Virus record (IMG/VR): IMGVR_UViG_2713896904_000008
Coordinates: 1 to 23,195 of that record
From: a virus
Taxonomy: Duplodnaviria > Heunggongvirae > Uroviricota > Caudoviricetes
Reading direction: 5' to 3' (one strand)
Length of the DNA stretch: 23,195 bases
Below are positions 6,288 to 22,278 of the stretch, one piece after another. The notes beneath the pieces are model-generated. The model did no database searches. It was not told the DNA's origin and was given only the letters and a program-made list of their open reading frames with translations. A program made the position numbers and the translations under genes. Each line of letters opens with the position of its first letter. The first letter of the stretch is position 1.

Positions 6288-6301
6288 ACAACCCCCTTTG
6301 A

Positions 6302-6329
6302 TTAATACCCGTATTTATCAAAATATCAA
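6302..6329 (-). promoter_or_regulatory. Candidate minus-strand promoter (TTGATA-16-TATTAA) for the leftward operon, in the divergent region with the terminase gene
   Basis: Read on reverse complement: -35 at 6324-6329, -10 at 6302-6307. Confidence 0.35.
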
Positions 6330-6372
6330 CAATTTAATAAATACCTTCATATTTCGTAATGAGGGTAATTAC

Positions 6373-8280
6373 ATGAAACTGATTTCGAACAAGGCCAAAT
6401 TAAAAAAGATTCTTAAAAATGCCGCAAAATATATCACTCCACCGCCTAAACTCCTTCCGTCTGAATGGTGCGAAGCGAATATGGTGCTGGTAGATGGTCC
6501 TCAAGCTGGGGATAAAGTTAAATTGTTGTCATTCCAAAAAGGCATGATTGATGCACCTTTCCTTGAGAACAAGAAAAAGTATGTTCTGATGACCAGTGCG
6601 CAGATCGGAAAGACTACCATCCTGAACGGTATCCTGTTTAACCAGATGGCTAACGATCCATGCAATATGATTATCGGACAATCAACCGCTAAAGAAATGT
6701 CTCAATATCTCGCGGGTAAGATCCGACCGTCTATCGAAGCATGTGATGCATTAAAAGACGTGGTTACAGACAAGAATGATCGCAATGCGGTTAACAACAA
6801 TAACCAGCTACAGCTAAAAACGAATCACTTCCTGTACATGGTATCGCTTACCAGTCCATCAACCCTACGTGGTAAGACCGCAAAGGTTGGATTGCTTGAC
6901 GAAATCGATGCTGCTACAGCCTCAGAAGAAGGTGATCCGGTGGCGCTGGCTGCTAACCGTTTAACTACCTTTGGCGATGAAGGTCGATTAGTCGTATCCA
7001 GTACCCCGACCAGTAAGCTCGGAAGCATTAACCAACAATGGTTATCAAGCGATATGCGTATGTTTTTTGTTCCGTGTCCTCATTGCGGTAGACACCAGGT
7101 GATCGAGTGGGAAAACGTTCAATTTGAATGGCGTAACATCGATGGTAAGAATTTACCCGATCCTGATACCGCTCGTTATATTTGCCCCCATTGTAAGAAC
7201 GCATGGACAGAAGGGGAACGAATCAGGGCAGTAGCGCAAGGCGAGTGGAGAGCAACCCGTGAAAGTGAAGTAGCAGGATTCTGGATTAGCCGTCTGTATT
7301 CACCTTTCAGCACGATCCGCGCTTGTGTGGTTGATTTTAGTCATGCGTGGCAATCCTTTGATTTACAATCATTTTATAACACCGTGTTAGGCAAGGTATA
7401 CGATGATCAGGACACGGCAGTAGAAGCAAATGAACTGGAAAAACTCAAAACAGATGTTTCTATCGAGAATATCCCTGATGACGTGATTTTCTTGTGCTCA
7501 GGAATTGACCAGCAATTGGATCGCGCAGAATCTACCATCTTAGGTGTAGCGAAAGATAAGGTTTACATTCTGGATCACCGTAGCTTTTACGATCATAACT
7601 GTGAACGATACGAATCACCTGTATGGGATCGTCTGGTTAACTTCAAGAAAACCAAATTCTATAACGTTAATGGTGAACGTGTGCCAATGCTCGCCAGCTT
7701 CCTCGATACATCAAACGGTCGATTCACTCAAGCCGGATACCGTATTTGTGGTAAGTGGAAGAACCTACACGCTATTAAAGGTAGTTCATCCGGTAATGCT
7801 CCAGTGATTCCGGTTAAACCTACCCGCACAGGTGGTCATGAATTGCTTATGCTGGGCGTTAACGTTGGTAAATCCGCTGTTCGTGAAATGCTGGTTAGAA
7901 ACCTGAAAGATAATCCTCATATTGGCTTAGAAATATCAGAAACCGTTCCTGATGATTATCTCGATCAGCTTTTGAGTGAATCCATCAAGCGTACTACTAC
8001 TGGTGTTCGTTGGGTGAAAAATCCAGGTAGTACCCGAAACGAGGCTCTCGACTGTCTGGTTTATAGCTATGCTGCTTCTCGCTACGTTCTTTCAAAAATG
8101 TCATGGGATAAACTCATTGCAATGAAAGACAGCTTAAACCGTGTTGTCGAAGAATCCGTAGAAGCTCATAAATCGCAATCTGACGAGCAAATCGAAGAAA
8201 CTAAGCCAAACCCACGACCACAGCGTCAAAACATCGCCAGACGTCCAAATAGAGGCCGTAGCTGGGTAACATCGTTCTAA
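6373..8280 (+). CDS. Terminase large subunit (lambda GpA-like), 635 aa from ATG 6373
   Basis: GAGGG RBS 7 nt before ATG 6373 (ORF track starts at 6298); Walker A-like [11 protein letters not shown]; size and position immediately upstream of portal. Confidence 0.85.
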
Positions 8281-8349: not shown

Positions 8350-8844
8350 ATGAGTTTAGAACTAATTCCCTTAGTAATTCGTAAAGGCGAAAAAATCACG
8401 CTGGCGAATGAAGAGGGTGTAACAATTCAGGTAGGAAATAATAAAGGTATCATTTATCAGGTTGATGATTCTCCGGCTAATCACGAGATTAAAACCTTAG
8501 ATTTTGCCGAGGGTAAATATACCATCGTAATAACTTTGGATGATGAACTGGTATCAATGCAGGAATTGACTGTTTTGCCAGTATTCGCCAAACAATCCAA
8601 AAAAGAATATCTGCGGGAAACTATCGCCTTAATCGAGCAAGTTATTTTCGCCCGTTTATCTGGGGACGAAGCCGCATTATCTGCAATGACAATAAAGGGT
8701 AATTCCTTTGCCTATGAGTCATTGGGTGTTCTCCAGCAATTGAAGACTGATTATGAACGTCAGTTATCTAAAGTAATTCAAGCCGAACGACGTAAACAGG
8801 GAATTAGCCCGATTAAAAATATCAAATTACGTCTTACGCGATAA
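8350..8844 (+). CDS. Hypothetical head-morphogenesis protein (164 aa) between terminase and portal
   Basis: GGGGTAA RBS; synteny only, no recognisable motif. Confidence 0.55.
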   Translation: MSLELIPLVIRKGEKITLANEEGVTIQVGNNKGIIYQVDDSPANHEIKTLDFAEGKYTIVITLDDELVSMQELTVLPVFAKQSKKEYLRETIALIEQVIFARLSGDEAALSAMTIKGNSFAYESLGVLQQLKTDYERQLSKVIQAERRKQGISPIKNIKLRLTR

Positions 8845-10411: not shown

Positions 10412-12415
10412 ATGCTTAAATTTCGCCGCGATCTTAACGGTTACGGTGGAGTTATTAACGAAGGGCATAACGATCAATACGAATTTGAAATTGCTTTCTC
10501 AAGTACACAGCCTTATCAGCGCCAATTTTGGGATGAGCAAAATCAAGAAATGGTGGTATTAGATGAAATTCTGGTACATACACCGGAAGCGGTTGATCTG
10601 TCTCGTCTGAATAATAACGCTCCGTTGCTGTTCAATCATAATTTCGATAATCATTTAGGTGTAGTCTGCGACGCTCGAATCGATGCGGATAACGTAGGCC
10701 GTGCTCTGGTTAAATTCTCTAAGCATGGCACTTTGGCTAATGATGTTCGTAATAAAGTCATTGAAGGTACGATGGAAAAAATTTCTGTCGGCTATGACAT
10801 TAAAGAATATCACATCGATTACGCTAAAGGACAATTGATTGTTACTAAGTGGGCACCCTTTGAAATTTCATTTGTGACAGTTCCTGCTGACGATTCGGTC
10901 GGTTTAAATCGCTCTCTAAATACTATCACAGTTAATTTGGAGGCTAAACGCGATATGACTAAAGAACAAATCGAACAAGTTAAAGACGAAGAAAAAGAAG
11001 TCGCTCAGGTTGAAGAAACTCCGGTAGAAGAAAATAAAGAACCGGAAGTAGAAGAAACTCAAGAGCGCCAAGTTGAAGAGAATAAAGAAGATGAAAATCT
11101 CGAAGACGGAAAAGACGCTGAACATCCTGAAAGTGTTGATGATGATAGTTCAACTGTTCGGGAAGCAGAAGAAATAAAAGAAGAACGTGAAGCTGCTCCG
11201 GTTGAAGAAGAAAAAATCGAGGAAGTGGCTGAACGTTCCGAAGAAGACGAATTAGAAATTCGCGAAATTGCACGCGAACTAAATATTGATGACGAAGAAT
11301 TGAAACGCGCATTGGCAAATAAAGAAATGACGCCGGAAGCATTCCGCACTAAGGCACTAAATAACATTACCAATGCTCAACGTAATAACGAACAAATTAA
11401 GGACTCTAAAATGGAAAAAACTTTTGACCTGAACAACGTAATTCGCTCTCTGGTAGATGGTGAAGCTCTGGGTGCTAACGAAGCCGAGTTTTCTGCAATG
11501 GCTGCTACTGCAACTATGCAGCGTGGTCGTGCTGCTCGTGGTGGCTCTGTATTCGTTCCGGCTGCTGCTATGCGTGCTGCTGCTGCTGGTAACACCAAAG
11601 CCGATCTGACTGCTATCACCGACGAAAAACTGATGACTGAATCCTACATCGAAATGCTGATGCCGGAATCTGTTCTGGGTCGTCTGGGTGTGACTGTTTA
11701 CAGTGGCTTGAATGCTCCGACCGCTATTCCAAAAATGACTAAATCCAGCGTTGATGCTTTCGGCTTCGTTGATGAAAACGGTGCTGCGCCAGAAAGCAAA
11801 GCTGAATTTGCGAACGTGAAACTGTCTCCTAAGACTTTCGCTGGTGGCAACCCGATCAGCCGTCAGAGCATTAAAACCGTTCCGGGTATCGCTACCCTGA
11901 TCACTGATCACATCAACCAGGCCGTTCGCATCAAACTGGAACAACTGATTCTGTCTGACAAAGCTAACGATCGTGGTCCGGATGGTCTGGTTAAACAACT
12001 GGTAGACGCTAGCCGTGTTACTAAGAAAGCCGCTTTCAGCTACAAAGACTTCCTGAAAGAAATTGCAGCACTGACTGATGCTGGCGTTCCTGCTCAGGCG
12101 ATCAAGTTTGCAATGAGCGGTGCAACTGCTGCTGAACTGGAATCTACCCTGAAAGATAACGGCGTTTCCGGTTATATCATCGAAAACGGCAAACTGGCTG
12201 GTTACGATGTAGTTACTTCTGGTGTTATTCCGGCAGACCACATCGTTCTGGGTGACTTCTCCGGTATCACTATCGGTGAGTGGGGCGGTCTGGAACTGGA
12301 TATGGACGACACTACCTACCGTGCACAGTCCGCTATCGTTCCGCGTATCTGGGTAGATCTGGATTATGTTGTTACTCAGCCGGAAGCTCTGAAAGTTCTT
12401 CACATCTCCGAATGA
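10412..12415 (+). CDS. Prohead protease - acidic scaffold/delta region - major capsid protein fusion ORF (667 aa)
   Basis: N-terminal ~170 aa with prohead-protease-like LLFNHNFDNHLG ... ISVGY motifs; Glu/Lys-rich acidic middle (res ~190-330); Ala/Gly-rich capsid-like C-terminal domain with extreme codon bias; stop TGA. Confidence 0.8.
   Translation: MLKFRRDLNGYGGVINEGHNDQYEFEIAFSSTQPYQRQFWDEQNQEMVVLDEILVHTPEAVDLSRLNNNAPLLFNHNFDNHLGVVCDARIDADNVGRALVKFSKHGTLANDVRNKVIEGTMEKISVGYDIKEYHIDYAKGQLIVTKWAPFEISFVTVPADDSVGLNRSLNTITVNLEAKRDMTKEQIEQVKDEEKEVAQVEETPVEENKEPEVEETQERQVEENKEDENLEDGKDAEHPESVDDDSSTVREAEEIKEEREAAPVEEEKIEEVAERSEEDELEIREIARELNIDDEELKRALANKEMTPEAFRTKALNNITNAQRNNEQIKDSKMEKTFDLNNVIRSLVDGEALGANEAEFSAMAATATMQRGRAARGGSVFVPAAAMRAAAAGNTKADLTAITDEKLMTESYIEMLMPESVLGRLGVTVYSGLNAPTAIPKMTKSSVDAFGFVDENGAAPESKAEFANVKLSPKTFAGGNPISRQSIKTVPGIATLITDHINQAVRIKLEQLILSDKANDRGPDGLVKQLVDASRVTKKAAFSYKDFLKEIAALTDAGVPAQAIKFAMSGATAAELESTLKDNGVSGYIIENGKLAGYDVVTSGVIPADHIVLGDFSGITIGEWGGLELDMDDTTYRAQSAIVPRIWVDLDYVVTQPEALKVLHISE
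11411..12415 (+). CDS. Major capsid protein translated from an in-frame internal start (334 aa), nested in the fusion ORF
   Basis: AAGGA at 11399-11403, 7 nt before in-frame ATG 11411; codon usage switches to highly-expressed type (ctg, cgt, ggt, gct, ccg) from about this point. Confidence 0.5.
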   Translation: MEKTFDLNNVIRSLVDGEALGANEAEFSAMAATATMQRGRAARGGSVFVPAAAMRAAAAGNTKADLTAITDEKLMTESYIEMLMPESVLGRLGVTVYSGLNAPTAIPKMTKSSVDAFGFVDENGAAPESKAEFANVKLSPKTFAGGNPISRQSIKTVPGIATLITDHINQAVRIKLEQLILSDKANDRGPDGLVKQLVDASRVTKKAAFSYKDFLKEIAALTDAGVPAQAIKFAMSGATAAELESTLKDNGVSGYIIENGKLAGYDVVTSGVIPADHIVLGDFSGITIGEWGGLELDMDDTTYRAQSAIVPRIWVDLDYVVTQPEALKVLHISE

Positions 12416-12553
12416 ACTAACGTAGAACCTTCTGAACCTTCCCCCGATTTGGGGGAAGAAAATCTGATTCCATCTCAGGAAGAAGAATCCCAGACGGTTA
12501 CGGCGAAAGCCACAGCTAAAAAGGCGGGTCGTCCGCCGAAAGCAAAAGAATAA
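12416..12553 (+). other. In-frame open extension after the capsid TGA stop (45 codons: TNVEPSEPSPDLGEENLIPSQEEESQTVTAKATAKKAGRPPKAKE, then TAA TAA); candidate readthrough segment
   Basis: Hand translation in the capsid frame shows no stop until 12551-12553; perfect 8-bp hairpin cttccccc-gattt-gggggaag at 12438-12458. Confidence 0.45.
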
Positions 12554-12558
12554 TAATT

Positions 12559-12586
12559 AGCCCTGCCTAACGGTGGGGCTTTTTTG
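12559..12586 (+). terminator. Rho-independent terminator (agccctgcc-taac-ggtggggct + TTTTT)
   Basis: Stem with G-U pairs and T-run; same terminator family as 18458 and 19731. Confidence 0.75.
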
Positions 12587-12616: not shown

Positions 12617-12907
12617 ATGTTCAAATTATCAGAATCACAATTAAATCGAATGTTTAAGAGTGCTCCTGTTTTTGTCGTGGAAGGTGGTAAATCAATTCGT
12701 GCTTACCATGAAATTACTACTACCGACGAACAAGGGGTATGGACAGAATCAGAATTCTTATTCTGTCGTGAGGGAGATTTAAAGCAAGGTGATATTGTCA
12801 TTGTAGAAAATCAGCGTTTCAAAGTTCAATACATTAAGCGCAATGGTGACAATACCAGTGATTGCTTTATCACTTTAGCAGGGGGTGCTCATGCTCGCTA
12901 CCGTTAA
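12617..12907 (+). CDS. Putative head-completion / head-tail adaptor protein (96 aa)
   Basis: GGGGGTAA RBS; small ORF directly after capsid gene; synteny-based. Confidence 0.5.
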   Translation: MFKLSESQLNRMFKSAPVFVVEGGKSIRAYHEITTTDEQGVWTESEFLFCREGDLKQGDIVIVENQRFKVQYIKRNGDNTSDCFITLAGGAHARYR

Positions 12908-13313
12908 TAATATGCCACGTCTTAAGATTAAACGTGCTTTACAGGATATTATCGAACAAGATCTAGGTCTGGCTTTAAACGTAGAACAAACTCAGCAAGG
13001 CTTTAGTGATGACGTGGTTTGTTGGATCACCGGAATGAATGAGACTTACAATAGGGTCCGTGGCGGTAATGCAATGCAAGCTGAATGCGTTATCGAAATG
13101 CAATTGTATTCTCAGATTCATGAAACCAAAATTCATGAGGGTATTTGCCAGATAATCCAGATTCAGCCAGATAACCCACGTTTTAAAGATTTGGGCTTCG
13201 CTATTTCAGATATCACTCCAGTAGCCTCTAATACCGATTATGACGACGATTCTAGTGATGGGGGTATCGTTGGGACACTTAGCCTTAAATTTTCTTATCT
13301 AGCGCGTTTTTAA
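12891..13313 (+). CDS. Putative head-tail joining / tail completion protein (141 aa from ATG 12891; ORF track starts at GTG 12885)
   Basis: AGGGGG 5 nt before ATG 12891; 17-nt overlap with upstream gene suggests translational coupling; synteny-based. Confidence 0.5.
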   Translation: MLATVNNMPRLKIKRALQDIIEQDLGLALNVEQTQQGFSDDVVCWITGMNETYNRVRGGNAMQAECVIEMQLYSQIHETKIHEGICQIIQIQPDNPRFKDLGFAISDITPVASNTDYDDDSSDGGIVGTLSLKFSYLARF

Positions 13314-13322
13314 GGGGTAATA

Positions 13323-14156
13323 ATGAATATTACGCATGATAACTTAGATATTTTTACGGGATCACATGTTGAAGTGTCGATCTCTAACCAGCTAGACAAT
13401 CAGGTCGACTTTTTCGATCCTAGCTTTAGTTCTATTGAGAACATCGCAGCATTCCCTACTCTAACCGAATCCACAGAGATAGAAACTCTGGAAGAGTATG
13501 ATCATGATGCTACTGGTAAGCTGGCTGGCTATCGCAAACTTGAACCGACTACGCTCACAGTAAACCGTGTTCTGGATGACGAACATCAAGCAATGTTGAT
13601 GAAAGCGGTAGAGGATAAAACACCTTTACGCTTCCGTATGTTCTATGTTGTGAACTCTGGCTATAGTGCTGCTAACACTGGTTACTATGTCATCTATGAT
13701 GCTTACGTCACATCACACAAAACCCGTGGTAGTGATAACAAAGCTGTAACACTGGAATTCAAACTTGAACCAGATGGCGGGATTCTTGCAAGGGGTATAG
13801 CGACCGAGGGAAAACTCATCCGACAAGGGGATTTTGGCGTAGGCTCAGGCGTTAGCCCATTCACCGGACCTATTGATAGTGAATCTCTGACAGGAAACCG
13901 CTTTGTAACCTACAAAGGAACGGCCAGCACTAACCCTTATGGTGCTGATACATCGTTAATTCATCTTCAAGCTAATGAGCATGGCGCATGGCAATTAACG
14001 TGTAATACTTCCGGTGCTCCACGTTTGCGGGTACGAAATATTCAGGACAACGGAAAATCGGAATGGATTAAAGTCTATACAACAAACGAGAAGCCTACGC
14101 CAGCCGAAATTGGCGCAGTGGCTAAGACGGACCGGATCGATTTCGGTGAGTATTAA
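13323..14156 (+). CDS. Tail-tube-fold paralog of the major tail protein with a C-terminal tail-fibre-like domain (277 aa)
   Basis: N-terminal ~150 aa align by eye with ORF 17865..18341 (DIFTG; FP-T; TLTVN; KA-ED-T; YYV; TG-; EF-); C-terminus IKVYTTNEKPTPAEIGA matches tail-fibre segment YKMYHEGDKPTPGEIGA. Confidence 0.65.
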   Translation: MNITHDNLDIFTGSHVEVSISNQLDNQVDFFDPSFSSIENIAAFPTLTESTEIETLEEYDHDATGKLAGYRKLEPTTLTVNRVLDDEHQAMLMKAVEDKTPLRFRMFYVVNSGYSAANTGYYVIYDAYVTSHKTRGSDNKAVTLEFKLEPDGGILARGIATEGKLIRQGDFGVGSGVSPFTGPIDSESLTGNRFVTYKGTASTNPYGADTSLIHLQANEHGAWQLTCNTSGAPRLRVRNIQDNGKSEWIKVYTTNEKPTPAEIGAVAKTDRIDFGEY

Positions 14157-14233: not shown

Positions 14234-17200
14234 ATGCAGTCGATCCAATTTAAACGCACACAGACGGCTGGTAAAAAGCCAACGCCGGAACAATTACAGG
14301 TCGGTGAAATCGCTATTCAGATGGCAGACCATGTAATTTATACCAAAGATAAAAATAACGCAGTAGTTCAAGTAAGTGTTTCTCCTGAAAGTCATAATGC
14401 TTTAAACACAAAAGTAGACAATAACAAGAAAACTACTGATGCGACTATCGCGGCAAATAAAACCGAAGCTGCTAACGCTCTGGCTACCGCTAAATCTGAA
14501 CTGAATAACACGATTAACACGAAAGATACAGCGACCAATAAGCGCATTGATGCTACTAACACCACTGTTAGTAACTTAACCCAGACAGTTACGGCAAATA
14601 AAACCGACGCTGACACCAAGATCAATAACCTTACGGGGACAGTTGCATCTAACAAATCAGCTATTGAAACTACAGTAGCTAATAACAAACGAGATGCGGA
14701 CAATAAAATCGCAGCTTTAACCACGACGGTTAATGACAATAACACCGCGATTAACAACAAAGTTAATACCACTAACACCAACGTTAGCAACTTAACTAAA
14801 ACTGTTACTGCAAATAAAACCGATGCAGATAACAAAATTTCTAGCTTAACTAGCACGGTTGCAGCTAACAAAACAGCGATTGAAAAGGTCGTTTCCGACA
14901 ACAAGAAAGATGCTGATACTAAAATCAGTAACCTTACAGGGACGGTGAATAGCAACCATACCGCTATTAACGCAAAGGTTGACAAAAACAAAACTGATAC
15001 TGATTCAGCGATCGCAGCCGCTAACCGTCGAATTGATTCTATTGAAGGTAGTAACGATGCTCTTTACATCAAGAAGAATACCAACACTTATCATCACGGC
15101 TATTTGTTAACCAAAACAGCTAACTATCTGGAAGACCAGACATCACGAGATCTTAACTACTTTGGTGCTTTCCGAACTAATGGACAAGATGGACTCATGG
15201 ATCTAACTCTTAATGTTCCTCATTCTGCCGGTAAAGCGCACGGTCGCGGATTTACTTTCCGTTATGCGTCTGGTGGATCTCGTGTTGAAACCTATGGTTT
15301 TGATAGAGAAGGACAGAAGAACTTTAGCTATAAGATGTATCACGAAGGTGATAAGCCGACTCCTGGCGAAATCGGTGCATACACTAAAGCAGAAGTTGAC
15401 AAGATGTTTGTTAAAAACGTCACTATGTCTGTTCCTAATTCTAGCGAAAACGTATCTGCATATTTCAAATTGGCAACCGCAACAATTCCACAAAACGGGC
15501 GTAGTGTGTTTTTCCGTATTCATGGTGGTAATGGTTACAACGTTACGGCATATGACCAAGTTGATGTAGTAGAAATTCTTCTCCGTAGTGGTAACGATAG
15601 ACCTAAAGGACTTAACGTAATTGCATACCGTAGAAATACAAACAAAGATTTTGAGGTATTTGCTGTCAATACTTCCGGTGATAACTATGATATCTACGTG
15701 AAATATCAGCGTTATACCGATAACGTTATTGTCGAATATGGGAAATCTGTTTATGTAAGTTTGACGGTTTATGATACGCCGGAAGCCACGTTAATTAAAC
15801 CTTCCGTTGGTGTTATCGGTGGTCGCAACGTAACTCTTTTTAACACAGAAAATAAACGTGGTGTGTTGAGTTTTGACGACAATACACAAAACAGCTATGA
15901 CATTGTTCATCTAAGCAATGATAGAGGTACTGGACGGAAATATATTCGTAAATTCCGTAGCAACTATAACGAAATGATCTGGCATGAGACTGTTCAAGGT
16001 AATACATATCGATTGGCAACCGGAACGACTGATGCATCGGAAGTTTTTAGAATTACTAGTCGCACCATGTTTACTGGTAAAGGTGTATTTGATGCCGGAC
16101 AAAACGTTCTTAGATTAGAGCGTCCTAGCAACCAATCAAACTATATTGAATGGCAAGACCGCCGAAATGGTGCTGATGCTCGTCAAGGTTGGATCGGTTT
16201 TGGTGGTGCTGAAACAAATAACTTTCAATGGTATAGCGATCAAGGAAAAAACTCATTCCTGTTGGATGCTAATGGTCAATGCTCTATTATTACTGGTGCA
16301 ACAAAAATTGTATATACCAACGGTGAATATTGCTCTGGCAACTCTAACGCATATCGTATGGCATTTGGTAACTATGGCGCATTCTGGCGTAATGACGGCA
16401 CTAAAGTTTATCTGTTGTCTACTGCTGAAAACGATAAGTTGGGCGGCTGGAATACTTATCGACCATTCATTTATGATTTAACTTCCGGTAACGTTCAATT
16501 AGGCGGTGATGGTAACGAAGATGCATTAACGTTAGAACGTGCTTCTCGTGCCGCTCGCTTTAGTAATGACGTTTACATTAAGAAAGGGCATTTGACTTTC
16601 GACGCTGGACGATTAGGATCTCGTGATTTCTTTAAAATCAACCATTGGGGTGATAGCAATAACGCCCGTGATAACATTTTGCAGTTTGAAGACAGTCAGG
16701 GCGCACATTTTACCACTGAACGTGCTATGGGTACTGGTAACATAACAGCACGTTTTAAAGGCTTTGTTCGTGTTGAGTCTGGTGAGATTGCATTTGATGC
16801 TAATCGGGGGTCGCAGTCTCAATTCACCTTACACACATGGGGTAACGAGCAACGCAAACAGGTTTTTGAATGTAAGGATGCTACAAGTTATCACTGGTAT
16901 ACTGAACGTACTCAGGGTGGCACTGGACCTATTCTGTTCGCTATGGCGGGTAGTCTAAACGTTGCTAGCAATATCACAACAACTGGTGCTGATATTACGT
17001 TTAAACGCGCTGGCAATAAGCACATCTGGTTTAGAGATCCAGACGGTTTAGAGTTAGGCTTGATGTACTGCGATGATGCTGGTGCTATTCGCTTCCGTGG
17101 TCAGAAACAAGCCCAGACGTGGAAACTTGCGGATAAGATGATTCATCTTGAATCTGGTAGCGTCGGCGGGTCTGATAAAGGTTTGATTCGTGGTAACGTT

Positions 17201-17809
17201 TCTGGTGGTAGTTGGGCTAGCTGGCGTGACCGTGCTTCCGGTTTACAAGTTGATTGTCCTCAATCAACCGATTCCGCTCATAACATCTGGAAAGCGACTC
17301 ATTGGGGAAAATATCATATTGCGGCAATGGGTGTGCATGTTCCTGGCGGCACTATAGGTAATGCTATGGCACGTCTAAACGTAAATGACGCCAACTTTGA
17401 CTTTAACGCTGCGGGTGATTTTAGCGCAGGTCGTAACGGTAGCTTTAACGATGTTTATATTCGTTCTGACCGTCGTCTGAAAGTTAATCTGGAAGAATTA
17501 AAAGATGATGCTTTAGAGAAAGTAAACTCCCTGAAAGTCTACTCATACGATAAAGTTAAGTCTCTTAAAGATCGTAGTGTGATTAAACGCGAAGTCGGTA
17601 TTATTGCTCAGGATCTTGAAGAAGTATTGCCGGAAGCAGTAGGTATTCAATCCACCGAAGATCCAGAAAATCCAGAAGCAATTAAGACTATTTCTAACTC
17701 CGCTGTTAATGCCTTGATTATTAAAGCTATTCAGGAAATGGACGCCAAATATAAAGCCCAGATCGAAGCATTACAGAAAGAAATTGCCGAACTCAAAGCA
17801 ACTAAATAA
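14234..17809 (+). CDS. Long tail fibre protein with C-terminal intramolecular chaperone / self-cleaving domain (1191 aa)
   Basis: N-terminal KRTQTAGKKPTPEQLQVGEIAI anchor-like motif; 72-aa tandem repeats; C-terminus SDRRLK ... GIIAQDLEEVLPEAV resembles the chaperone domain of phage T5 L-shaped fibre and endosialidases (Ser-Lys dyad motif). Confidence 0.85.
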   Translation: MQSIQFKRTQTAGKKPTPEQLQVGEIAIQMADHVIYTKDKNNAVVQVSVSPESHNALNTKVDNNKKTTDATIAANKTEAANALATAKSELNNTINTKDTATNKRIDATNTTVSNLTQTVTANKTDADTKINNLTGTVASNKSAIETTVANNKRDADNKIAALTTTVNDNNTAINNKVNTTNTNVSNLTKTVTANKTDADNKISSLTSTVAANKTAIEKVVSDNKKDADTKISNLTGTVNSNHTAINAKVDKNKTDTDSAIAAANRRIDSIEGSNDALYIKKNTNTYHHGYLLTKTANYLEDQTSRDLNYFGAFRTNGQDGLMDLTLNVPHSAGKAHGRGFTFRYASGGSRVETYGFDREGQKNFSYKMYHEGDKPTPGEIGAYTKAEVDKMFVKNVTMSVPNSSENVSAYFKLATATIPQNGRSVFFRIHGGNGYNVTAYDQVDVVEILLRSGNDRPKGLNVIAYRRNTNKDFEVFAVNTSGDNYDIYVKYQRYTDNVIVEYGKSVYVSLTVYDTPEATLIKPSVGVIGGRNVTLFNTENKRGVLSFDDNTQNSYDIVHLSNDRGTGRKYIRKFRSNYNEMIWHETVQGNTYRLATGTTDASEVFRITSRTMFTGKGVFDAGQNVLRLERPSNQSNYIEWQDRRNGADARQGWIGFGGAETNNFQWYSDQGKNSFLLDANGQCSIITGATKIVYTNGEYCSGNSNAYRMAFGNYGAFWRNDGTKVYLLSTAENDKLGGWNTYRPFIYDLTSGNVQLGGDGNEDALTLERASRAARFSNDVYIKKGHLTFDAGRLGSRDFFKINHWGDSNNARDNILQFEDSQGAHFTTERAMGTGNITARFKGFVRVESGEIAFDANRGSQSQFTLHTWGNEQRKQVFECKDATSYHWYTERTQGGTGPILFAMAGSLNVASNITTTGADITFKRAGNKHIWFRDPDGLELGLMYCDDAGAIRFRGQKQAQTWKLADKMIHLESGSVGGSDKGLIRGNVSGGSWASWRDRASGLQVDCPQSTDSAHNIWKATHWGKYHIAAMGVHVPGGTIGNAMARLNVNDANFDFNAAGDFSAGRNGSFNDVYIRSDRRLKVNLEELKDDALEKVNSLKVYSYDKVKSLKDRSVIKREVGIIAQDLEEVLPEAVGIQSTEDPENPEAIKTISNSAVNALIIKAIQEMDAKYKAQIEALQKEIAELKATK
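14558..14990. repeat. Two tandem ~216-bp repeats (72 aa each, with ~14-aa sub-periodicity TVTANKTDADxKIxxLTxTV) in the fibre shaft
   Basis: NTTVSNLTQTVTANKTDADTKI at residue 109 and NTNVSNLTKTVTANKTDADNKI at residue 181. Confidence 0.7.
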
Positions 17810-17864: not shown

Positions 17865-18341
17865 ATGTCTCAGCAATTTAAAGATATTTTTACTGGTGGT
17901 CTGGTAAGTCTGTTCTATCACGCCGATACCACTAACACCAATCTTGCACATGAAAGCTATGAAGAAATTAAAGAGTGTGCTGGTTTTCCTGAAACTGGTA
18001 TCGAGCGCGGTACTGTAGAAGTTAAATCCTTCTCTTCTCAGTATAACCGTAAACTGGTAGGGAAGCTGAACGTTCCTGATCTGACTCTGACCGTTAACTA
18101 CATCCCAGGCGATGCGGTACATGAAAAACTGATCAAAGCTGCCGAAGACGGTACTCGTATTCAGATTAAAGTAGAATATTACGTTGACGCAGCAAAACAG
18201 ACTGGTATTCGCACCGCTTTCAACGGCTTCATTTCTAAAGTTGCTATGAACGGTGGCGATGAAGAAGTGGTAACTAAAGAGTTTACCTTTGCAGTGGACG
18301 GCAAACCGCTGAAACAGGAAATCTTCAATACTGCCTCTTGA
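17865..18341 (+). CDS. Major tail (tube) protein, 158 aa
   Basis: Position immediately upstream of chaperone/tape-measure genes; strong codon bias; GGGGTAA RBS; stop TGA. Confidence 0.75.
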   Translation: MSQQFKDIFTGGLVSLFYHADTTNTNLAHESYEEIKECAGFPETGIERGTVEVKSFSSQYNRKLVGKLNVPDLTLTVNYIPGDAVHEKLIKAAEDGTRIQIKVEYYVDAAKQTGIRTAFNGFISKVAMNGGDEEVVTKEFTFAVDGKPLKQEIFNTAS

Positions 18342-18452
18342 ACTTTCGAAGAACAACCCCAGCCAATTCAAGATGAACCTACGGTGATTCCAGAATTAGA
18401 GGTTGTTACGGCGAAAGCCACAGCTAAACGAAGCCGCAAGGCTAAAGATTAA
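18342..18452 (+). other. In-frame open extension after the major tail TGA stop (36 codons: TFEEQPQPIQDEPTVIPELEVVTAKATAKRSRKAKD, then TAA); candidate readthrough segment
   Basis: Hand translation; shares the 24-nt block gttacggcgaaagccacagctaaa (peptide VTAKATAK) with the capsid extension. Confidence 0.45.
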
Positions 18453-18457
18453 TTATA

Positions 18458-18486
18458 AGCCCTGCCTTAATGGTGGGGCTTTTTTA
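18458..18486 (+). terminator. Rho-independent terminator (agccctgcc-ttaat-ggtggggct + TTTTT)
   Basis: Same stem sequence as the terminator at 12559. Confidence 0.75.
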
Positions 18487-18500
18487 TTGGAGTAATAAAA

Positions 18501-19007
18501 ATGGCAAATGTCGTTAATAAGCCCGGCTGGGTCGGATCATCGGCTGTTTCTGTAACTGGCAAGAGATGGATGCGTGAGGCTATGCAAGCGTTAAAAGTTG
18601 GTGTTCCTGGTAATATGAGCGCGATGTGTGGTCGTGGTATGGATACGGTTGTAGCTACTGCTGCATGGTCTACTTCATTGGGTAATAACTGGGGTGTAAC
18701 TGCTTCAAACTATCCAGTAACTGACATGCGCGGTAAAGGATCTATGGAGAACCCCGAAAACGTGGGCGTAGGGCGTCTGATTGGCGTTATCGTTGGTCAA
18801 TTCAATGGCGGTACTCCTACTATGGCTGTATATCTCCAGAACGGTAGAGCGGGGAATATAACCGTTAATTTGGGTGGTGCTGCTGTCACTGTTCCTTATA
18901 ACAGTATGCAAAGTGGTTTTCATTACTACTGGTTAAGCAATCCTCCGGCTGCTTTCCTCAATAACATTAAGAAGACTGGCACTAAGCAGACTTTGAAAAT
19001 CTCATAA
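18501..19007 (+). CDS. Hypothetical Gly-rich protein (168 aa); moron-like insertion between major tail gene and tail chaperone
   Basis: Own RBS (GGAG) directly after a terminator; codon usage (aga, ata, tta, gga, ggg, agt) differs from the flanking highly biased structural genes. Confidence 0.55.
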   Translation: MANVVNKPGWVGSSAVSVTGKRWMREAMQALKVGVPGNMSAMCGRGMDTVVATAAWSTSLGNNWGVTASNYPVTDMRGKGSMENPENVGVGRLIGVIVGQFNGGTPTMAVYLQNGRAGNITVNLGGAAVTVPYNSMQSGFHYYWLSNPPAAFLNNIKKTGTKQTLKIS

Positions 19008-19040: not shown

Positions 19041-19349
19041 ATGAATATTAACGAAATGTTAGCCGCTTTAACTCCTGCTCGTAAATCTATTGAAATCAAC
19101 GGTTTTAAATTTTATGCCCGTCCGATGACCGTAGTAGAATTTAACGAGCACATCACCGCAGTAGATAAGAATGGTCGTGATGAACTGACTATTCTCAATT
19201 GTGTACAGGATGAAGACGGCAATCAGATTTTTGAATCAATCGAACAAGTCAACGCTCTTTATACTACCGCTAAACAGAAATTGATTGGTTTGGTTGCTAT
19301 GGCTTCCATCATGCCGGAACCGTCAGAAGTTGAAGAATCGGTAAAGTAA
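19041..19349 (+). CDS. Tail assembly chaperone (G-like), 102 aa
   Basis: Position immediately upstream of tape measure gene; followed by an overlapping -1 frame ORF. Confidence 0.6.
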   Translation: MNINEMLAALTPARKSIEINGFKFYARPMTVVEFNEHITAVDKNGRDELTILNCVQDEDGNQIFESIEQVNALYTTAKQKLIGLVAMASIMPEPSEVEESVK

Positions 19350-19723
19350 ACCCCTTCTTGAAGTTCTATTATCGGCAGATTATGCGTAAAGGGCTTAGTA
19401 AAGATGAAATGCTCACTATGCCGATCACTTTATTCTATAGCCTATACATTTTCGACACGTTCTTAGAACCGCAATCACCTGTATTTCACGATGATCAGAT
19501 GGCGATGCTTCAATATACCATGTATATGACGTCGCCTAACATGACTCGTGATTTTGCTAAAAAGATTAAACCTAGTCAATTCAAATCAATTAGCGACGAA
19601 AAAGTATTCCTTACTAAGAAAGATATTGAGGAAAGGGAACGTAAGAAGCGGGAAGAAAATAAAGCTGCAATGCTTTCTCTGTTCGATCCTGCATTACTCG
19701 ATACTCTCAAGAAGGGTAAATAA
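19334..19723 (+). CDS. Tail assembly chaperone extension (T-like) in the -1 frame; probable G-T frameshift product
   Basis: -1 frame open from 19334, overlapping the last 5 codons of the G ORF; no SD before TTG 19358; candidate slip at A-AAG-UAA (19343-19349). Confidence 0.45.
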   Translation, partial: RIGKVNPFLKFYYRQIMRKGLSKDEMLTMPITLFYSLYIFDTFLEPQSPVFHDDQMAMLQYTMYMTSPNMTRDFAKKIKPSQFKSISDEKVFLTKKDIEERERKKREENKAAMLSLFDPALLDTLKKGK

Positions 19724-19730
19724 TATTGCC

Positions 19731-19758
19731 GCCCTGCCGTTATTGGCGGGGCTTTTTT
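19731..19758 (+). terminator. Rho-independent terminator (gccctgcc-gttatt-ggcggggc + TTTTTT)
   Basis: Third member of the gccctgcc / ggggc terminator family. Confidence 0.75.
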
Positions 19759-19776: not shown

Positions 19777-22278
19777 ATGGCAAAAACTAAACATGTTTTG
19801 ACGGTTGAAGCCGAAATTAAAGAGGCTCAGAAAAAACTAAAACAATTAGAAGGTCAGATTAATTCCATTTCCGAAAAAGCGGGTAAGGGATTTAAAGTTA
19901 ATGGTGGTATTGGTGGCGGTGGATTCGGTGGTATATCTGAATTGGTAGGAATGGTAAACCGCTTTGCTGGTCCACAGGGGATCGCAGTCGCCGCAGCCGC
20001 AGCCACTAAGAAATTCGCGGATCACATCGCTGGTCTTTCTAGTGAACTAAGACAAGCCTCAGAGATGAGCGGTGTTGGGATTGAAGAATTACAGCGTTTA
20101 ACAGGGGTGATGAAAAACGTTAATTTAACCGCTTCCCAAGCTGCTGATATTCATAAAGACGTTAACGAGAAAATCTATGAAGCCGTTCAATCTGGTACGG
20201 GTGAGATTGCTGGTGTTGCCAAAGAATATAAGCTGAAATTTGAAGAAATCAGCAAGGTAACAGAAAACGGTGGTACTGGTATTGATGCACTCGCTAAGAT
20301 GTATTATATGCTTCGTGAACAAGGACACACAGCAAACGAGGCAGCGAGCGCCATTTCTCGTGTTAGTGATAAAGGTGGTGAACTGGCGAATCAGTTTGAG
20401 AAAATGGGGTCAGAGGCTGAATATTACAAGCAGAAGGCTAGCCAGTCTATTAACATTACCGAAGAGATGGCAAAGAAACACGCTGAATATGAGCAAAAAA
20501 CCAAAGATTTAGGAACTGCCATTGATGGTATTAAGGTAGAAGTATTTCAAGACCTGATCGTTGGTATGACTGACTTTTTTAATCATCTCTATCGGTCATT
20601 AGTTCAGTATAAATCTGATGCTGCTTTAACAGATAATTTTAAAGCACCAAAATTAACTGGCGTAGCAAAAGAACAACAAGAAAAATTACAGCAACAATTT
20701 CATAAAAACAGCACACATAAAACTGGTATAGGTGGATCTACTGGTAATTGGATGGGTAAAGAGCAAGGATTAAGCTATCAAGAAGCATTGATGCTCGTTA
20801 AAATGAATATGGATCCGACCAAGTATTTCAAGCACGCCAATAACCAGATGTACCGCGCCTTGCAAATGGCTCGTGAAGGTAAAAACTTCAATAACTCCGA
20901 TGCTCGCAAGAACTTTAGATTCACGTTCGATGGCAAGGTCTATGACGGCAACTACAACCAGATTGAAATTGCCAAAAAACAGGAAAATGACGGTAAAGGG
21001 CTTAACTCTGGTGGCGGTACTACTTGTTCTAAGTGTGGTGGTAAGAAGCACGAAGGTAACGAGAAATGCCCTGTTGATTTGGCTAAGGAAGCCCAGCAAC
21101 GCCGCGAGAAGGAACAAAAACAGCGAGAGGAGGCACTCAAGAAACTGAATGATCTCGATGTTAAATTGCAAGGACAGACCGCAGCGTCTATCACTTCTCA
21201 AAACAAGCAATTAGAAACCAGCTTAAAAGATCTTGATAATGCTGTTAAGTTGGGGCTTATTTCTCAGGAAGACGCAGCTACTAAACGCCAGCAACTGATC
21301 GACCAGAACGCCGAAAACGTTTATAAGATGGTCTTAGGTGCTGATCCGGTTGATGCTCTGAATGCTTTAACACAATTGCAACAAATCAGGGACAATGAGT
21401 TAGAAAGCCATAAACGGTTACTTGATGGTAAGGCTATCTCCTACGAAGAATATATGCGTCGTGTGAATGATACCGAACAAAGTTATTCGCAGATTGAAGA
21501 TTCTTTGCATGGAATGGATGGTTTTAAATCCAATCAATTAACAGATAGTTTCTCATATCAAGATCCGAATGATCCGTTTGCTGCTTTTAATTCCATTGAT
21601 CAAGAAAAAAGAGAAGCCGAACAAGATTACCAGACTAAGAAACTTGATATTAATAACATCAAAGATCCGAAAGAGCGGTATAAACAGTTAGAAAAACTCA
21701 ACGCTGAACATCAAAAGAAAATGGCAGCTATTGAGAAACAATATTCTGATGCTCGTTTAGGTATTGCTTCCGACATGTATGATGGTATTTCTGGTGCTAT
21801 GGCTCTCTTTGGTGCGGAAAACTCTAAAGCGGCTAAAGCTGCATTTATGGCGCATCAAGCCTACCAGATCGGCGAAGCAACGGTTAGCACTTACGCTGGT
21901 GCTGCTGCTCAGATCGCGAAGCAAAACTATGCTGGTGCGGCTTTGATCGTCGCTCAAGGTTTAGCACAGGTTGCTAAAATCAAATCTGTATCGGTTAGCG
22001 GTATGGCTCATGATGGTATCGATAACATCCCTCGTGAGGGTACATGGTTGCTTGATAAGGGTGAACGAGTAGTTGATCAGCGTACTAACGGTGATTTGAA
22101 AGACTTCTTATCTGCTCAAAAATCAGGTGGTGGTAACTCTCAGCCGATTGAAGTTAATGCGCCTTTGAACATTAACGGCAACGTTAATAGCTCAGACAAG
22201 ATGGTCATGGAAGCTATCAAACGTCATGCTAAGTTAGTTGCTCAGGCGGTAGAAGACGCACAGCGCCGTAAGATGTAA
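19777..22278 (+). CDS. Tail tape measure protein (833 aa)
   Basis: Long helical, Ala/Lys/Glu/Gln-rich protein with Gly-rich segment; canonical position after the chaperone pair. Confidence 0.85.
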   Translation: MAKTKHVLTVEAEIKEAQKKLKQLEGQINSISEKAGKGFKVNGGIGGGGFGGISELVGMVNRFAGPQGIAVAAAAATKKFADHIAGLSSELRQASEMSGVGIEELQRLTGVMKNVNLTASQAADIHKDVNEKIYEAVQSGTGEIAGVAKEYKLKFEEISKVTENGGTGIDALAKMYYMLREQGHTANEAASAISRVSDKGGELANQFEKMGSEAEYYKQKASQSINITEEMAKKHAEYEQKTKDLGTAIDGIKVEVFQDLIVGMTDFFNHLYRSLVQYKSDAALTDNFKAPKLTGVAKEQQEKLQQQFHKNSTHKTGIGGSTGNWMGKEQGLSYQEALMLVKMNMDPTKYFKHANNQMYRALQMAREGKNFNNSDARKNFRFTFDGKVYDGNYNQIEIAKKQENDGKGLNSGGGTTCSKCGGKKHEGNEKCPVDLAKEAQQRREKEQKQREEALKKLNDLDVKLQGQTAASITSQNKQLETSLKDLDNAVKLGLISQEDAATKRQQLIDQNAENVYKMVLGADPVDALNALTQLQQIRDNELESHKRLLDGKAISYEEYMRRVNDTEQSYSQIEDSLHGMDGFKSNQLTDSFSYQDPNDPFAAFNSIDQEKREAEQDYQTKKLDINNIKDPKERYKQLEKLNAEHQKKMAAIEKQYSDARLGIASDMYDGISGAMALFGAENSKAAKAAFMAHQAYQIGEATVSTYAGAAAQIAKQNYAGAALIVAQGLAQVAKIKSVSVSGMAHDGIDNIPREGTWLLDKGERVVDQRTNGDLKDFLSAQKSGGGNSQPIEVNAPLNINGNVNSSDKMVMEAIKRHAKLVAQAVEDAQRRKM

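Follow-up and report, generated by a model that had tools for sequence, protein, structure and literature searches.

How is a long fibre carried by a phage whose fibre gene lies between the head-completion genes and the major tail gene? The question is raised by a 23,195-nucleotide stretch of viral DNA (the window), in which the original prediction had placed a fibre of 1191 amino acids (aa) at that position, flanked by a paralogue of the tail tube protein (here tubeP). We confirmed this gene order and propose that the gene probably encodes a lateral fibre with which a temperate lambda-like siphovirus adsorbs reversibly; the fibre would be constructed like the distal half-fibre of a T-even phage and mounted on the tail-tube paralogue. 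To our knowledge, the anchoring of side fibres is structurally known among siphoviruses for T5 only.

The locus lies in a widespread prophage lineage

The window is part of a temperate siphovirus prophage of about 36 kb that is present in about 1% of complete Escherichia coli genomes. The lineage, common across Shigella and Salmonella as well as E. coli, has further relatives in Proteus, Enterobacter, Leclercia, Serratia and Pantoea, and is widespread in E. coli yet unstudied. When the whole window was compared by megablast with 50,697 phage records, a block resembling the T-even fibre protein gp37 was the sole part with any match; with matches confined to that block, the prophage therefore has no cultured close relative. 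The nearest cultured phage is DCP80, at about 40% aa identity, and a literature search found no publications on it. Relatives were drawn from complete E. coli genomes and IMG/VR; a query of genome contigs with tubeP gave no confirmed locus. The genes around the fibre are as follows.

12617–12907: FII-like gene, upstream of the fibre gene
12885–13313, plus strand: tail terminator, gpU-like, 142 aa, a canonical terminator
13323–14156, plus strand: tubeP, 277 aa, with a tube-fold domain, a conserved Gly-rich linker and a stub
14234–17809, plus strand: lateral tail fibre, 1191 aa (predicted mature form 1077 aa), matching PHROG 1699 'long tail fiber protein distal subunit' (E = 4e-144)
17865–18341, plus strand: major tail tube protein, 158 aa, matching PF16460 Phage_TTP_11 and PHROG 158 (E = 2e-21)
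18501–19007, plus strand: gp38-type tail-fibre tip adhesin, 168 aa, matching PF21721 Gp38_N (E = 3.6e-15) and PHROG 1121 'tail fiber adhesin' (E = 1.5e-33)

Every complete related locus that was examined, from E. coli, Proteus, Enterobacter or Leclercia, keeps the order terminator, tubeP, fibre and tube, as does phage DCP80. The tube gene immediately precedes the genes for the G/T chaperone and the tape measure, the stretch from terminator to tape-measure gene contains no sheath gene, and Dit is encoded by a separate gene (PHROG 1302 match). The same hairpin and in-frame extension come after both the major tube and the major capsid gene. A 91-nucleotide (nt) tRNA-Gln called by ARAGORN on the minus strand (13078–13168) was discarded as a false positive, antisense within the terminator gene. 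Roseophage R4C, which has been solved and whose capsid ranks next in closeness (29% identity), has neither a tube paralogue nor a fibre in the corresponding position and was uninformative here.

The fibre is a mosaic containing a gp37 block

The fibre open reading frame (ORF) starts with an ATG 6 nt behind GAGGTGA and, judged by its sequence, is a mosaic of a gp37-type N terminus (aa 1–53), a probable coiled coil (aa 55–276) and a gp37 block (aa 294–1169), ending in a chaperone.

14234–14392, plus strand: gp37-type N-terminal 'plug', aa 1–53, MQSIQFKRT...GEIAIQMADHVIYTKD..., by gp37 homology
14396–15061, plus strand: probable α-helical coiled-coil shaft, aa 55–276, rich in T, N, A, K and D and holding both 72-aa repeats
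15101–17740, plus strand: block near-identical by megablast to gp37 of Krischvirus (RB49/JSE/Phi1-like) myoviruses
17465–17806, plus strand: intramolecular chaperone Peptidase_S74 (PF13884), aa 1078–1191

At the nt level the block is 78–89% identical to more than 60 T-even genomes (megablast), and fibre residues 294–1169 share 76.9% aa identity with JSE gp37 residues 71–967. A PF21446 Gp34_trimer domain lies within the fibre at aa 647–747 (16172–16474). The plug is 37% identical to JSE gp37 residues 4–54 (E = 3e-8) and 52–56% identical to N termini encoded by T-even fibre genes, several of which carry a gp37 annotation. Homology to gp37 thus covers both the N-terminal domain and the tip; unlike Krischvirus gp37, the window fibre has about 220 aa of coiled-coil shaft with 72-aa repeats inserted behind the plug. 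With JSE gp35 as query, no match was found in the window or in a complete prophage of the family (L068), and JSE gp36 matched only short C-terminal segments in both; judged by these two queries, the locus does not encode a four-protein hinged fibre (gp34, gp35, gp36 and gp37) on a contractile-tail baseplate.

Hydrophobic residues in the shaft recur with a periodicity of 3.6 residues (power 3.28 against a maximum of 2.25 among 500 shuffles). The ORF and its 72-aa tandem repeats were borne out: two units, aa 105–176 (14546–14761) and aa 177–248 (14762–14977), share 49 of 72 residues. At the nt level, a BLAST self-comparison aligned gene positions 314–522 with 530–738 (window 14547–14755 and 14763–14971) at 71% identity (E = 2e-25); Tandem Repeats Finder reported no repeats in this region. 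The repeats had also been proposed as a hotspot of shaft-length variation. The region is indeed length-polymorphic among relatives, with a YIKK landmark at residue 278, 250 or 231 in fibres of the window type and at 273 or 218 in a second fibre type, but the indels measure 28, 47 and 55 aa and are not whole 72-aa units. The gp37 near-copy over two-thirds of the gene, the gp38 adhesin and a gp36-type stub on tubeP were absent from the original prediction.

A T-even block in a prophage could be decaying cargo, a non-functional gene remnant in a cryptic element. Some copies are disrupted, by an IS element in the fibre gene of one relative (L033) and by ISKpn26 in one E. coli genome. Against decay, intact fibre ORFs of 1121–1207 aa occur in more than 30 divergent loci with the plug, chaperone motif and partner genes conserved, the whole structural module is intact, and the copy in ETEC1738 has recombinase and lysis genes. 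We regard decay as very improbable.

A predicted self-cleaving chaperone and a candidate gp38-type tip adhesin

A C-terminal intramolecular chaperone of the T5 pb1 and endosialidase type had been predicted, and the evidence supports it: PF13884 matches aa 1078–1136 at 57.9 bits (E = 1.2e-15; gathering cut-off 22), and both motifs cited for it, IR-SDRRLK (aa 1076–1083) and LEEVLPEAV, are present. The S-D-x-R-x-K catalytic Ser...Lys motif stands at the start of the domain (Ser1078 ... Lys1083). Cleavage before the Ser of SDRRLK, as first suggested, is also what we predict: DVYIR^SDRRLK would be cut between Arg1077 (17462–17464) and Ser1078 (17465–17467), giving a predicted mature chain of 1077 aa and a fragment of 114 aa. 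The site aligns with those of phage S16 (DLNVS^SDRRIKK) and the fPS phages (DVYIR^SDGRLKI), in which cleavage lays bare the gp38 docking site (PMC7917993).

A candidate partner for such a site is encoded two genes downstream of the fibre, past the tube gene and a terminator-like hairpin. Its N-terminal attachment domain is:

18510–18626, plus strand: adhesin aa 4–42, with Trp10 and Trp23

The adhesin is 44% identical to Stx-phage adhesins, and its residues 7–48 are 64% identical to RB49 gp38. It is found in all relatives of the window type, directly behind the fibre gene in the Enterobacter relative, and is missing from the second fibre type. At 168 aa it is short for a gp38 and, past the N-terminal domain, departs from T2/S16 gp38 and resembles the Stx-phage adhesins. 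We infer that this protein completes a tip of the T2/S16 type.

The tube paralogue ends in a putative gp36-type socket

In T-even fibres, gp37 is joined to gp36, and a gp37-type plug on the window fibre leads to the protein encoded just upstream, which comprises these parts.

13347–13799, plus strand: tube-fold domain of tubeP, aa 9–159
13860–14153, plus strand: fibre-like stub of tubeP, aa ~180–277
14055–14153, plus strand: gp36-type C-terminal 'socket' of tubeP, aa 245–277, ending ...KVYTTNEKPTPAEIGAVAKTDRIDFGEY-COOH, from hhalign against gp36

TubeP has a tail-tube fold and shares 30% identity with the major tube protein of 158 aa (E = 7e-14); since the terminator and Dit are encoded separately, its sequence marks it as a minor tube-fold protein. 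An hhalign comparison of the tubeP family with Krischvirus gp36 (E = 7e-7, probability 91.9%) paired the final 33 residues of one with those of the other over their whole length. Two further matches are marginal: tblastn placed JSE gp36 residues 396–496 on 13860–14153 (E = 0.002), and the stub matched positions 425–495 of the 496 in PHROG 16472 (E = 0.001), a family to which JSE gp36 aligns along its entire length (1167 bits). The socket homology to gp36 spans only about 33 residues. JSE gp36 and P0215, a long tube-domain fusion, both have the PF03903 Phage_T4_gp36 domain. TubeP gave no match to it at any E value up to 10, so it resembles gp36 at its end without being a gp36 itself. The model of the tubeP C terminus had a pLDDT of 30–45 and is uninformative; such values are to be expected when a trimeric stub is modelled as a monomer.

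Socket and plug recur together, and tube domain and fibre also occur in one chain

The two fibre types of the family share a block conserved at about 90% in nt; homology extends across tubeP and fibre codons 1–53 and breaks at 14394. Socket is followed by plug in JSE (gp36 then gp37), in the window, in the second E. coli fibre type, in Proteus and in DCP80. The plug motif opens each gene that follows a socket in the relatives, with a divergent plug in Enterobacter, where the socket is kept. The Proteus chain consists of tubeP, a 198-aa segment ending MDFGTF and a 675-aa fibre starting IQFKR.

The tubeP profile also matches the N termini of many proteins of 600–1500 aa, of which four of the eight scanned end in Peptidase_S74. 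The 1349-aa Leclercia protein P0281 (tubeP match aa 4–241, E = 4e-16) has fibre modules and a chaperone in common with the window fibre; as a single polypeptide it combines the tube domain with fibre and chaperone, and it fills the exact terminator-to-tube slot. The lineage thus shows both a fused state, in one chain, and a split, plug-in state.

These fusions bear on the reading that tubeP is merely a decorated tube variant co-polymerising along the tail (like SPP1 gp17.1*), with the fibre attached elsewhere, for example to Dit or to the J-like tip protein, and the C-terminal motif a generic one of fibre ends. Tube proteins of many siphoviruses do carry C-terminal decoration domains, and the socket region also matches internal parts of several fibre PHROGs. 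However, single-chain fusions of tube domain, fibre and S74 chaperone occupy the same genomic slot, socket precedes plug at every junction examined, the alignment with gp36 runs C terminus to C terminus, and a tubeP in every ring would put fibres along the whole tail. A decorated variant therefore seems improbable to us.

A proposed route from tube ring to receptor

In the mounting that we propose, ring formation, docking, cleavage and adhesin binding would proceed as follows. TubeP would join the tail as a specialised tube-fold ring, its stub ending in the motif of about 33 residues from T-even gp36. The gp37-type plug of the fibre would dock on the tubeP stub as gp37 does on gp36. The fibre would trimerise with the help of its S74 chaperone, which would then cut itself off between Arg1077 and Ser1078. 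The bared tip could bind the gp38-type adhesin, which would recognise the receptor, and the irreversible step would be left to a separate J-like tip protein. Such a protein is present in L068, where nothing downstream of its gene encodes a fibre. Two points sit awkwardly with this mounting: a hexameric ring has six chains and would carry two trimers, a poor fit with 3-fold or 6-fold tail tips, and many copies lie in prophages that may be defective.

Neck or tip

Read at the sequence level, the evidence ties the fibre to tubeP and not to a place on the tail. The original prediction likened its placement to neck-passage or collar-whisker modules and suggested a neck- or collar-attached fibre. 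In this reading tubeP would form the last, head-proximal ring under the terminator, with fibres hanging like T4 whiskers or the neck-passage structures of Gram-positive phages. The neighbourhood beside the head-completion and terminator genes stands; searches of Pfam, PHROGs and PDB sequences found no similarity of fibre or tubeP to fibritin, neck-passage or collar-whisker proteins. A match to the XM1 'collar spike' was not significant (E = 0.22), and a PDB match to a 'putative neck whiskers protein gp24' of Sf11 was rejected as neck evidence, that protein being the Sf11 tube protein. In favour of the neck, the order terminator, tubeP, fibre, tube holds in every relative examined and phage gene order often mirrors virion order, an argument by which p140 of T5 was itself placed (PMC10038345). 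Where family types differ by an exchange of the tube, chaperone and tape-measure genes, tubeP also stays with the conserved head/neck block. On the other side, one relative (L019) has a terminator only 46% identical and a tubeP 90% identical, so terminator and tubeP do not always travel together. Further, by rough inferred lengths, a fibre of about 75–80 nm on a tail of about 125 nm (833-aa tape measure) would fall short of the tail tip if hung from the neck, and the ring is distal in T5, where alone the anchoring of side fibres by a tube paralogue has been solved. We consider neck attachment possible but less likely than not.

Alternatively, the tubeP ring may have the Dit ring on one side and the first tube ring on the other, like T5 p140, and carry ordinary tip-proximal side fibres. 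This placement has the only solved analogue, the T5 p140/p132 collar, and suits the same rough lengths. Against it, the window genes lie between the terminator and tube genes, whereas the T5 anchoring genes are among the baseplate genes; no p132-like collar protein was evident in general Pfam and PHROG scans of neighbouring genes; and no sequence feature specifies affinity for Dit. To us a distal collar has a little less than an even chance. A fibre-bearing ring elsewhere than next to Dit or under the terminator is unlikely. Natural chimeras (head/neck swaps in L005, L020 and L019, and two tail types) are compatible with neck and distal rings alike.

Comparison with known systems

For fibre anchors built on a tube domain, a literature search turned up the work on T5 alone, in which a ring of the tube paralogue p140, the collar p132 and the L-shaped fibre pb1 with its S74 chaperone form the attachment. 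In T5 the connection between p140 and the fibre is made by a distinct collar, the Ig-like dodecamer p132, whereas in the window tubeP itself bears the predicted docking stub. The authors of that work described p140 and p132 as confined to T5-like phages and reasoned that other siphoviruses must anchor side fibres differently (PMC10038345). The prophage lineage would offer a second, genetically simple anchor, a tube copy that bears the fibre either fused or through a gp36/gp37 joint. With T4 fibritin whiskers and the lactococcal neck-passage and collar-whisker structures, the window shares only gene neighbourhood.

Lambda Stf/Tfa and the window fibre are both dispensable-type lateral fibres of temperate E. 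coli siphoviruses, with regions exchangeable with T-even gp37/gp38; such exchange is established for the lambda side fibre. They differ in that lambda stf/tfa lie downstream of J and rely on a separate chaperone, Tfa, whereas the window fibre lies upstream of the tube gene and has its own.

A further parallel is the T-even gp36–gp37 joint. In both, the upstream protein ends in the gp36 C-terminal motif (...KPTPxExGAV....IDFG[ET][YF]-COOH), the fibre starts with the gp37 N-terminal motif, and socket gene precedes plug gene. Whereas the gp36 shaft joins the gp35 knee, tubeP holds only the last ~33–100 residues of gp36, fused to a tail-tube domain, and by the JSE gp35 and gp36 queries the window is without gp35 and a full gp36; no gp34 is evident either. 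Because the joint is of T-even type, whole gp37 modules should be exchangeable with virulent Krischvirus phages, and such an exchange has happened here. The shared joint would account for a 2.6-kb receptor-binding module about 80–89% identical in nt between a temperate siphovirus and virulent Krischvirus; this sharing points to prophages as a reservoir of T-even host-range variation, and the socket/plug pair suggests a portable part for fibre engineering across phage morphotypes. We give an even chance to the broader proposal that tubeP with its gp36-type socket is an undescribed fibre mounting on a non-contractile tail, possibly head-proximal, and a universal adapter through which temperate siphovirus prophages and T-even myoviruses trade gp37 or gp37/gp38 host-range modules. 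With the tips of T2/S16 type and of RB49/JSE, the window shares the gp37 block, the gp37-like plug, the cleavage motif and a nearby gp38 with a Trp-bearing N-terminal domain, gene 38 being unlinked from gene 37 in RB49 as in the window; the T-even tips, however, belong to virulent myoviruses, and the window virion is that of a temperate siphovirus.

Gene content of the window

On its + strand the window (23.2 kb; G+C about 41%) has a late operon of lambda-like type:

6298–8280, +, large terminase, gpA type
8350–8844, +, head–tail joining protein, 164 aa
8855–10366, +, portal, lambda family
10412–12415, +, prohead protease–capsid fusion
12617–12907, +, FII-like protein
12885–13313, +, tail terminator (gpU-like), 142 aa
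13323–14156, +, tube-like protein, 277 aa (tubeP)
14234–17809, +, fibre, 1191 aa
17865–18341, +, tube protein, 158 aa
18501–19007, +, gp38-like protein
19041–19349 and 19358–19723, +, G and T chaperone genes
19777–22278, +, tape measure, 833 aa
from 22329, +, distal tail protein

The 158-aa product is the predicted major tube protein, an assignment supported in three ways, because its gene lies upstream of G and T, it matches Pfam TTP_11, and a hairpin and an extension are common to its gene and the capsid gene. Its paralogy with tubeP, beside the fibre gene, is genuine, as had been proposed (30% identity, E 7e-14). A 91-nt tRNA-Gln called by ARAGORN (13078–13168, −) lies inside the terminator coding sequence on the opposite strand and is probably a false positive.

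A mosaic, self-chaperoned fibre

The fibre open reading frame has the length and start originally claimed for it, with an ATG 6 nt 3′ of GAGGTGA. The C-terminal chaperone read from two motifs is borne out by a Peptidase_S74 domain (PF13884; aa 1078–1136, E 1.2e-15), and both motifs are found. The two 72-aa units are also real (71% nucleotide identity, E 2e-25; 49 of 72 residues identical); Tandem Repeats Finder (TRF) did not detect them. They sit in a T/N/A/K/D-rich stretch (aa 55–276) that we read as a probable α-helical coiled coil because hydrophobic residues recur every 3.6 positions, a periodicity stronger than in any of 500 shuffles. The original prediction of a shaft-length hotspot at these repeats stands in part: the region is length-polymorphic among relatives, but not by whole 72-aa units. 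Differences are of 28, 47 or 55 residues. In window-type fibres a YIKK landmark falls at position 278, 250 or 231; in a second type it falls at 273 or 218.

Most of the remaining fibre resembles T-even gp37. Over nucleotides 15101–17740 the gene shares 78–89% identity with Krischvirus gene 37 (phages RB49, JSE, Phi1 and others), and fibre aa 290–1188 share 76.9% identity with aa 71–967 of JSE gp37. The first ~50 residues are likewise similar to T-even gp37 N termini (37% to JSE, 52–56% to others). The coiled-coil shaft, placed between this N-terminal plug (aa 1–53) and the gp37-like core, has no counterpart in JSE gp37. Between the two fibre types, homology of about 90% at the nucleotide level is unbroken from the head genes as far as fibre codon 53, tubeP included, ends at 14394 and returns only at 21081, within the tape-measure gene. 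The plug can therefore be counted with the conserved scaffold of the virion, all that lies distal to it being open to exchange.

A probable gp36-type socket on tubeP

The C-terminal ~100 residues of tubeP match the C-terminal end of Krischvirus gp36 (tblastn, E 0.002) and positions 425–495 of 496 in PHROG 16472, a family matched by full-length JSE gp36. In profile–profile comparison, the 33 C-terminal residues of tubeP-family proteins (aa 245–277 in the window, the socket) align end to end with the 33 at the end of gp36 (probability 91.9%, E 7e-7). These three signals are concordant in pointing to a gp36-like C terminus. The C terminus of gp36 reportedly abuts the N terminus of gp37. In every case compared, the upstream partner ends in ...KPTP..(G/N)A(V/I)....(I/M)D(F/L)G(E/T)(F/Y)-COOH, and the following gene usually starts with M..IQFKR..G.KP...L..GE.AIN..D..(I/L)(Y/F)TKD. 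This socket-then-plug pattern holds from JSE gp36 to gp37, in the window, in the second E. coli fibre type, in phage DCP80 and in a Proteus relative, whose two-piece fibre shows the pattern at both junctions (tubeP to a 198-aa piece ending MDFGTF, and from that to a 675-aa piece). An Enterobacter relative retains the socket and has a divergent plug sequence. The T-even distal rod is (gp36)3–(gp37)3 (PMC5537660; bioRxiv 10.64898/2026.03.06.709160). From these sequence patterns, together with the fusions described below, we consider it likely that tubeP carries the fibre through a gp36/gp37-type joint.

Tube domains fused to fibres

A search of 1.8 billion representative proteins with the tubeP profile gave 155 clusters at E ≤ 1e-10. 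Among the matches listed, many are proteins of 600–1500 aa in which the N terminus aligns with the profile. Domain scans of eight of these long proteins found a C-terminal Peptidase_S74 domain in four, one of which also has a gp37 trimerisation region, a C-terminal Phage_tail_C_2 domain ('pyocin knob' in one source's name) in two, a tail-collar domain in one and a Phage_T4_gp36 domain in one. The hosts of such proteins (P0215–P0358) are Enterobacterales; cluster records looked up for eight of them include Leclercia, Pantoea, Serratia, Kluyvera and Rouxiella. The class appears to have gone undescribed so far. One member, a 1349-aa Leclercia prophage protein, aligns with tubeP over aa 4–241 (E 4e-16) and also with the shaft modules and chaperone of the window fibre; its gene fills the exact terminator-to-tube slot in an otherwise collinear prophage. 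Such a fusion in the corresponding slot argues strongly that tube domain and fibre belong to a single physical assembly.

Position of the tubeP ring on the tail

The original prediction was of a fibre that may be attached at the neck or collar. A head-proximal tubeP ring would fit the order terminator, tubeP, fibre, tube, which is invariant among the relatives examined. It would also fit the type swap, in which tubeP is kept together with the block of head and neck genes. However, the natural chimera L019 pairs a terminator only 46% identical with a tubeP 90% identical, so the argument from co-inheritance is weaker, and we regard a neck position as possible but rather doubtful. A ring near the tail tip is quite conceivable, if short of probable. 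The sole solved precedent is distal: T5 p140, a duplicate of the tube gene, forms one ring beside Dit, and a p132 collar around p140 holds the side fibres (PMC10038345). A receptor-binding fibre would also be most useful close to the tip, and rough inferred lengths, ~33 nm of coiled coil plus a ~45-nm gp37-like rod against a tail of ~125 nm (estimated from the 833-aa tape measure), favour the distal site. The ring poses a symmetry problem, in that six tubeP chains would give two trimeric stubs.

Maturation and tip adhesin

The fibre sequence DVYIR^SDRRLK matches reported cleavage sites in S16 gp37 (DLNVS^SDRRIKK) and fPS phages (DVYIR^SDGRLKI), in which loss of the last ~113 residues uncovers the gp38 docking surface (PMC7917993); by the predicted cleavage the window fibre would lose 114 residues. 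The 168-aa product of 18501–19007 has a gp38 N-terminal attachment domain (PF21721) with two tryptophans, W10 and W23. Its aa 7–48 share 64% identity with RB49 gp38; taken whole, the protein most resembles Stx-phage adhesins (44%). The Enterobacter relative encodes a full-size gp38 (PF21721 and PF05268) immediately 3′ of its fibre gene; in RB49 and JSE, as in the window, gene 38 is unlinked from gene 37.

A widespread prophage family

Of 5426 complete E. coli genomes, 55 contain DNA related to the window (85–91% identity), in each case in the chromosome. IMG/VR has at least 35 related contigs. The copy in E. coli ETEC1738 (NZ_CP122768, 2.77–2.80 Mb) is a ~36-kb prophage inserted at hicB. Besides lysis genes it encodes a J-like tip protein of 1258 aa and a large serine recombinase of 559 aa, with no fibre gene 3′ of J. 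The insertion splits the hicB antitoxin gene of the hicAB toxin–antitoxin locus (7127–7438 and 43278–43397 in the numbering of locus L068, this copy); the right end of the prophage has an IS1 and a gene for a DEAD-box helicase.

Megablast of the window against 50,697 phage genomes gave no match outside the fibre gene. The closest cultured phage is DCP80, with ~40% protein identity and identical gene order. This sole cultured relative is a 141-kb record (PQ671644) classified as Straboviridae/Gaprivervirus, with a lambda-like siphovirus structural module in its first 23 kb and a 698-aa tubeP bearing several repeats of a gp36-like motif; either the classification is wrong or the record is a hybrid or chimeric assembly.

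Within the E. coli family, window-type fibres are 65–86% identical to that of the window and accompanied by gp38, whereas second-type fibres share 36–41% identity with it, end in S74, lack gp38 and are separated from the tube gene by three small ORFs. These ORFs (98–111, 101 and 100 aa; 14357–15263 in L025, 14420–15365 in L027) match no Pfam family and PHROGs only marginally, and may encode fibre accessory or assembly proteins.

In four loci (L005, L006, L019, L020) the same tail-side genes follow a different head module, with a portal 52% and a capsid 39% identical. The two parts meet after the terminator gene in L019 and after the capsid gene in the others; mosaicism at gene boundaries is therefore pronounced in this family. 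The window G/T genes (19041–19723) share just 54–68% protein identity with those of every related locus examined, against 90–100% for the flanking tube and gp38 genes in window-type relatives, so this segment is present in the window as a third allele. Nor does the window tape-measure gene have a close match over its first ~430 codons. An IS3-type transposase pair cuts one fibre to 975 aa (L033, 13893–15046), and ISKpn26 lies in or beside the fibre gene in the complete genome of E. coli PRO_A-1412-6M-A; some prophage copies are therefore decaying.

Putative UGA read-through extensions of capsid and tube genes

Both the capsid and the 158-aa tube gene stop at TGA, followed in frame by open stretches of 45 codons (12416–12556) and 36 codons (18342–18452), respectively. 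These extensions have similar acidic-then-basic tails, ...VTAKATAKKAGRPPKAKE and ...VTAKATAKRSRKAKD, and near-identical terminator-like hairpins, AGCCCTGCC...GGTGGGGCT-T(n), lie 3′ of both. Hairpins occur at:

12559–12580, hairpin
18457–18481, hairpin
19731–19752, hairpin

Among relatives, all 36 capsid genes and all 19 window-type tube genes stop at TGA, with extensions (28–44 and 36–41 codons) that differ by in-frame indels only; second-type tube genes have a TAA stop and no extension. The pattern looks like programmed UGA read-through, which would yield extended minor forms of both proteins.

Comparison with known systems

Horizontal exchange of fibre genes is already well known, as are gp38 adhesins and fibres with their own chaperone. 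In the searchable literature we found no description of a gp37-compatible, socket-bearing or fibre-fused tube paralogue in the terminator–tube slot. What is new is a tube-protein paralogue that has a probable gp36-type socket of its own, or else continues into a whole fibre, its conserved terminator–tube placement in a widespread, unstudied Enterobacterales prophage lineage and the predicted direct compatibility with T-even gp37 modules that results.
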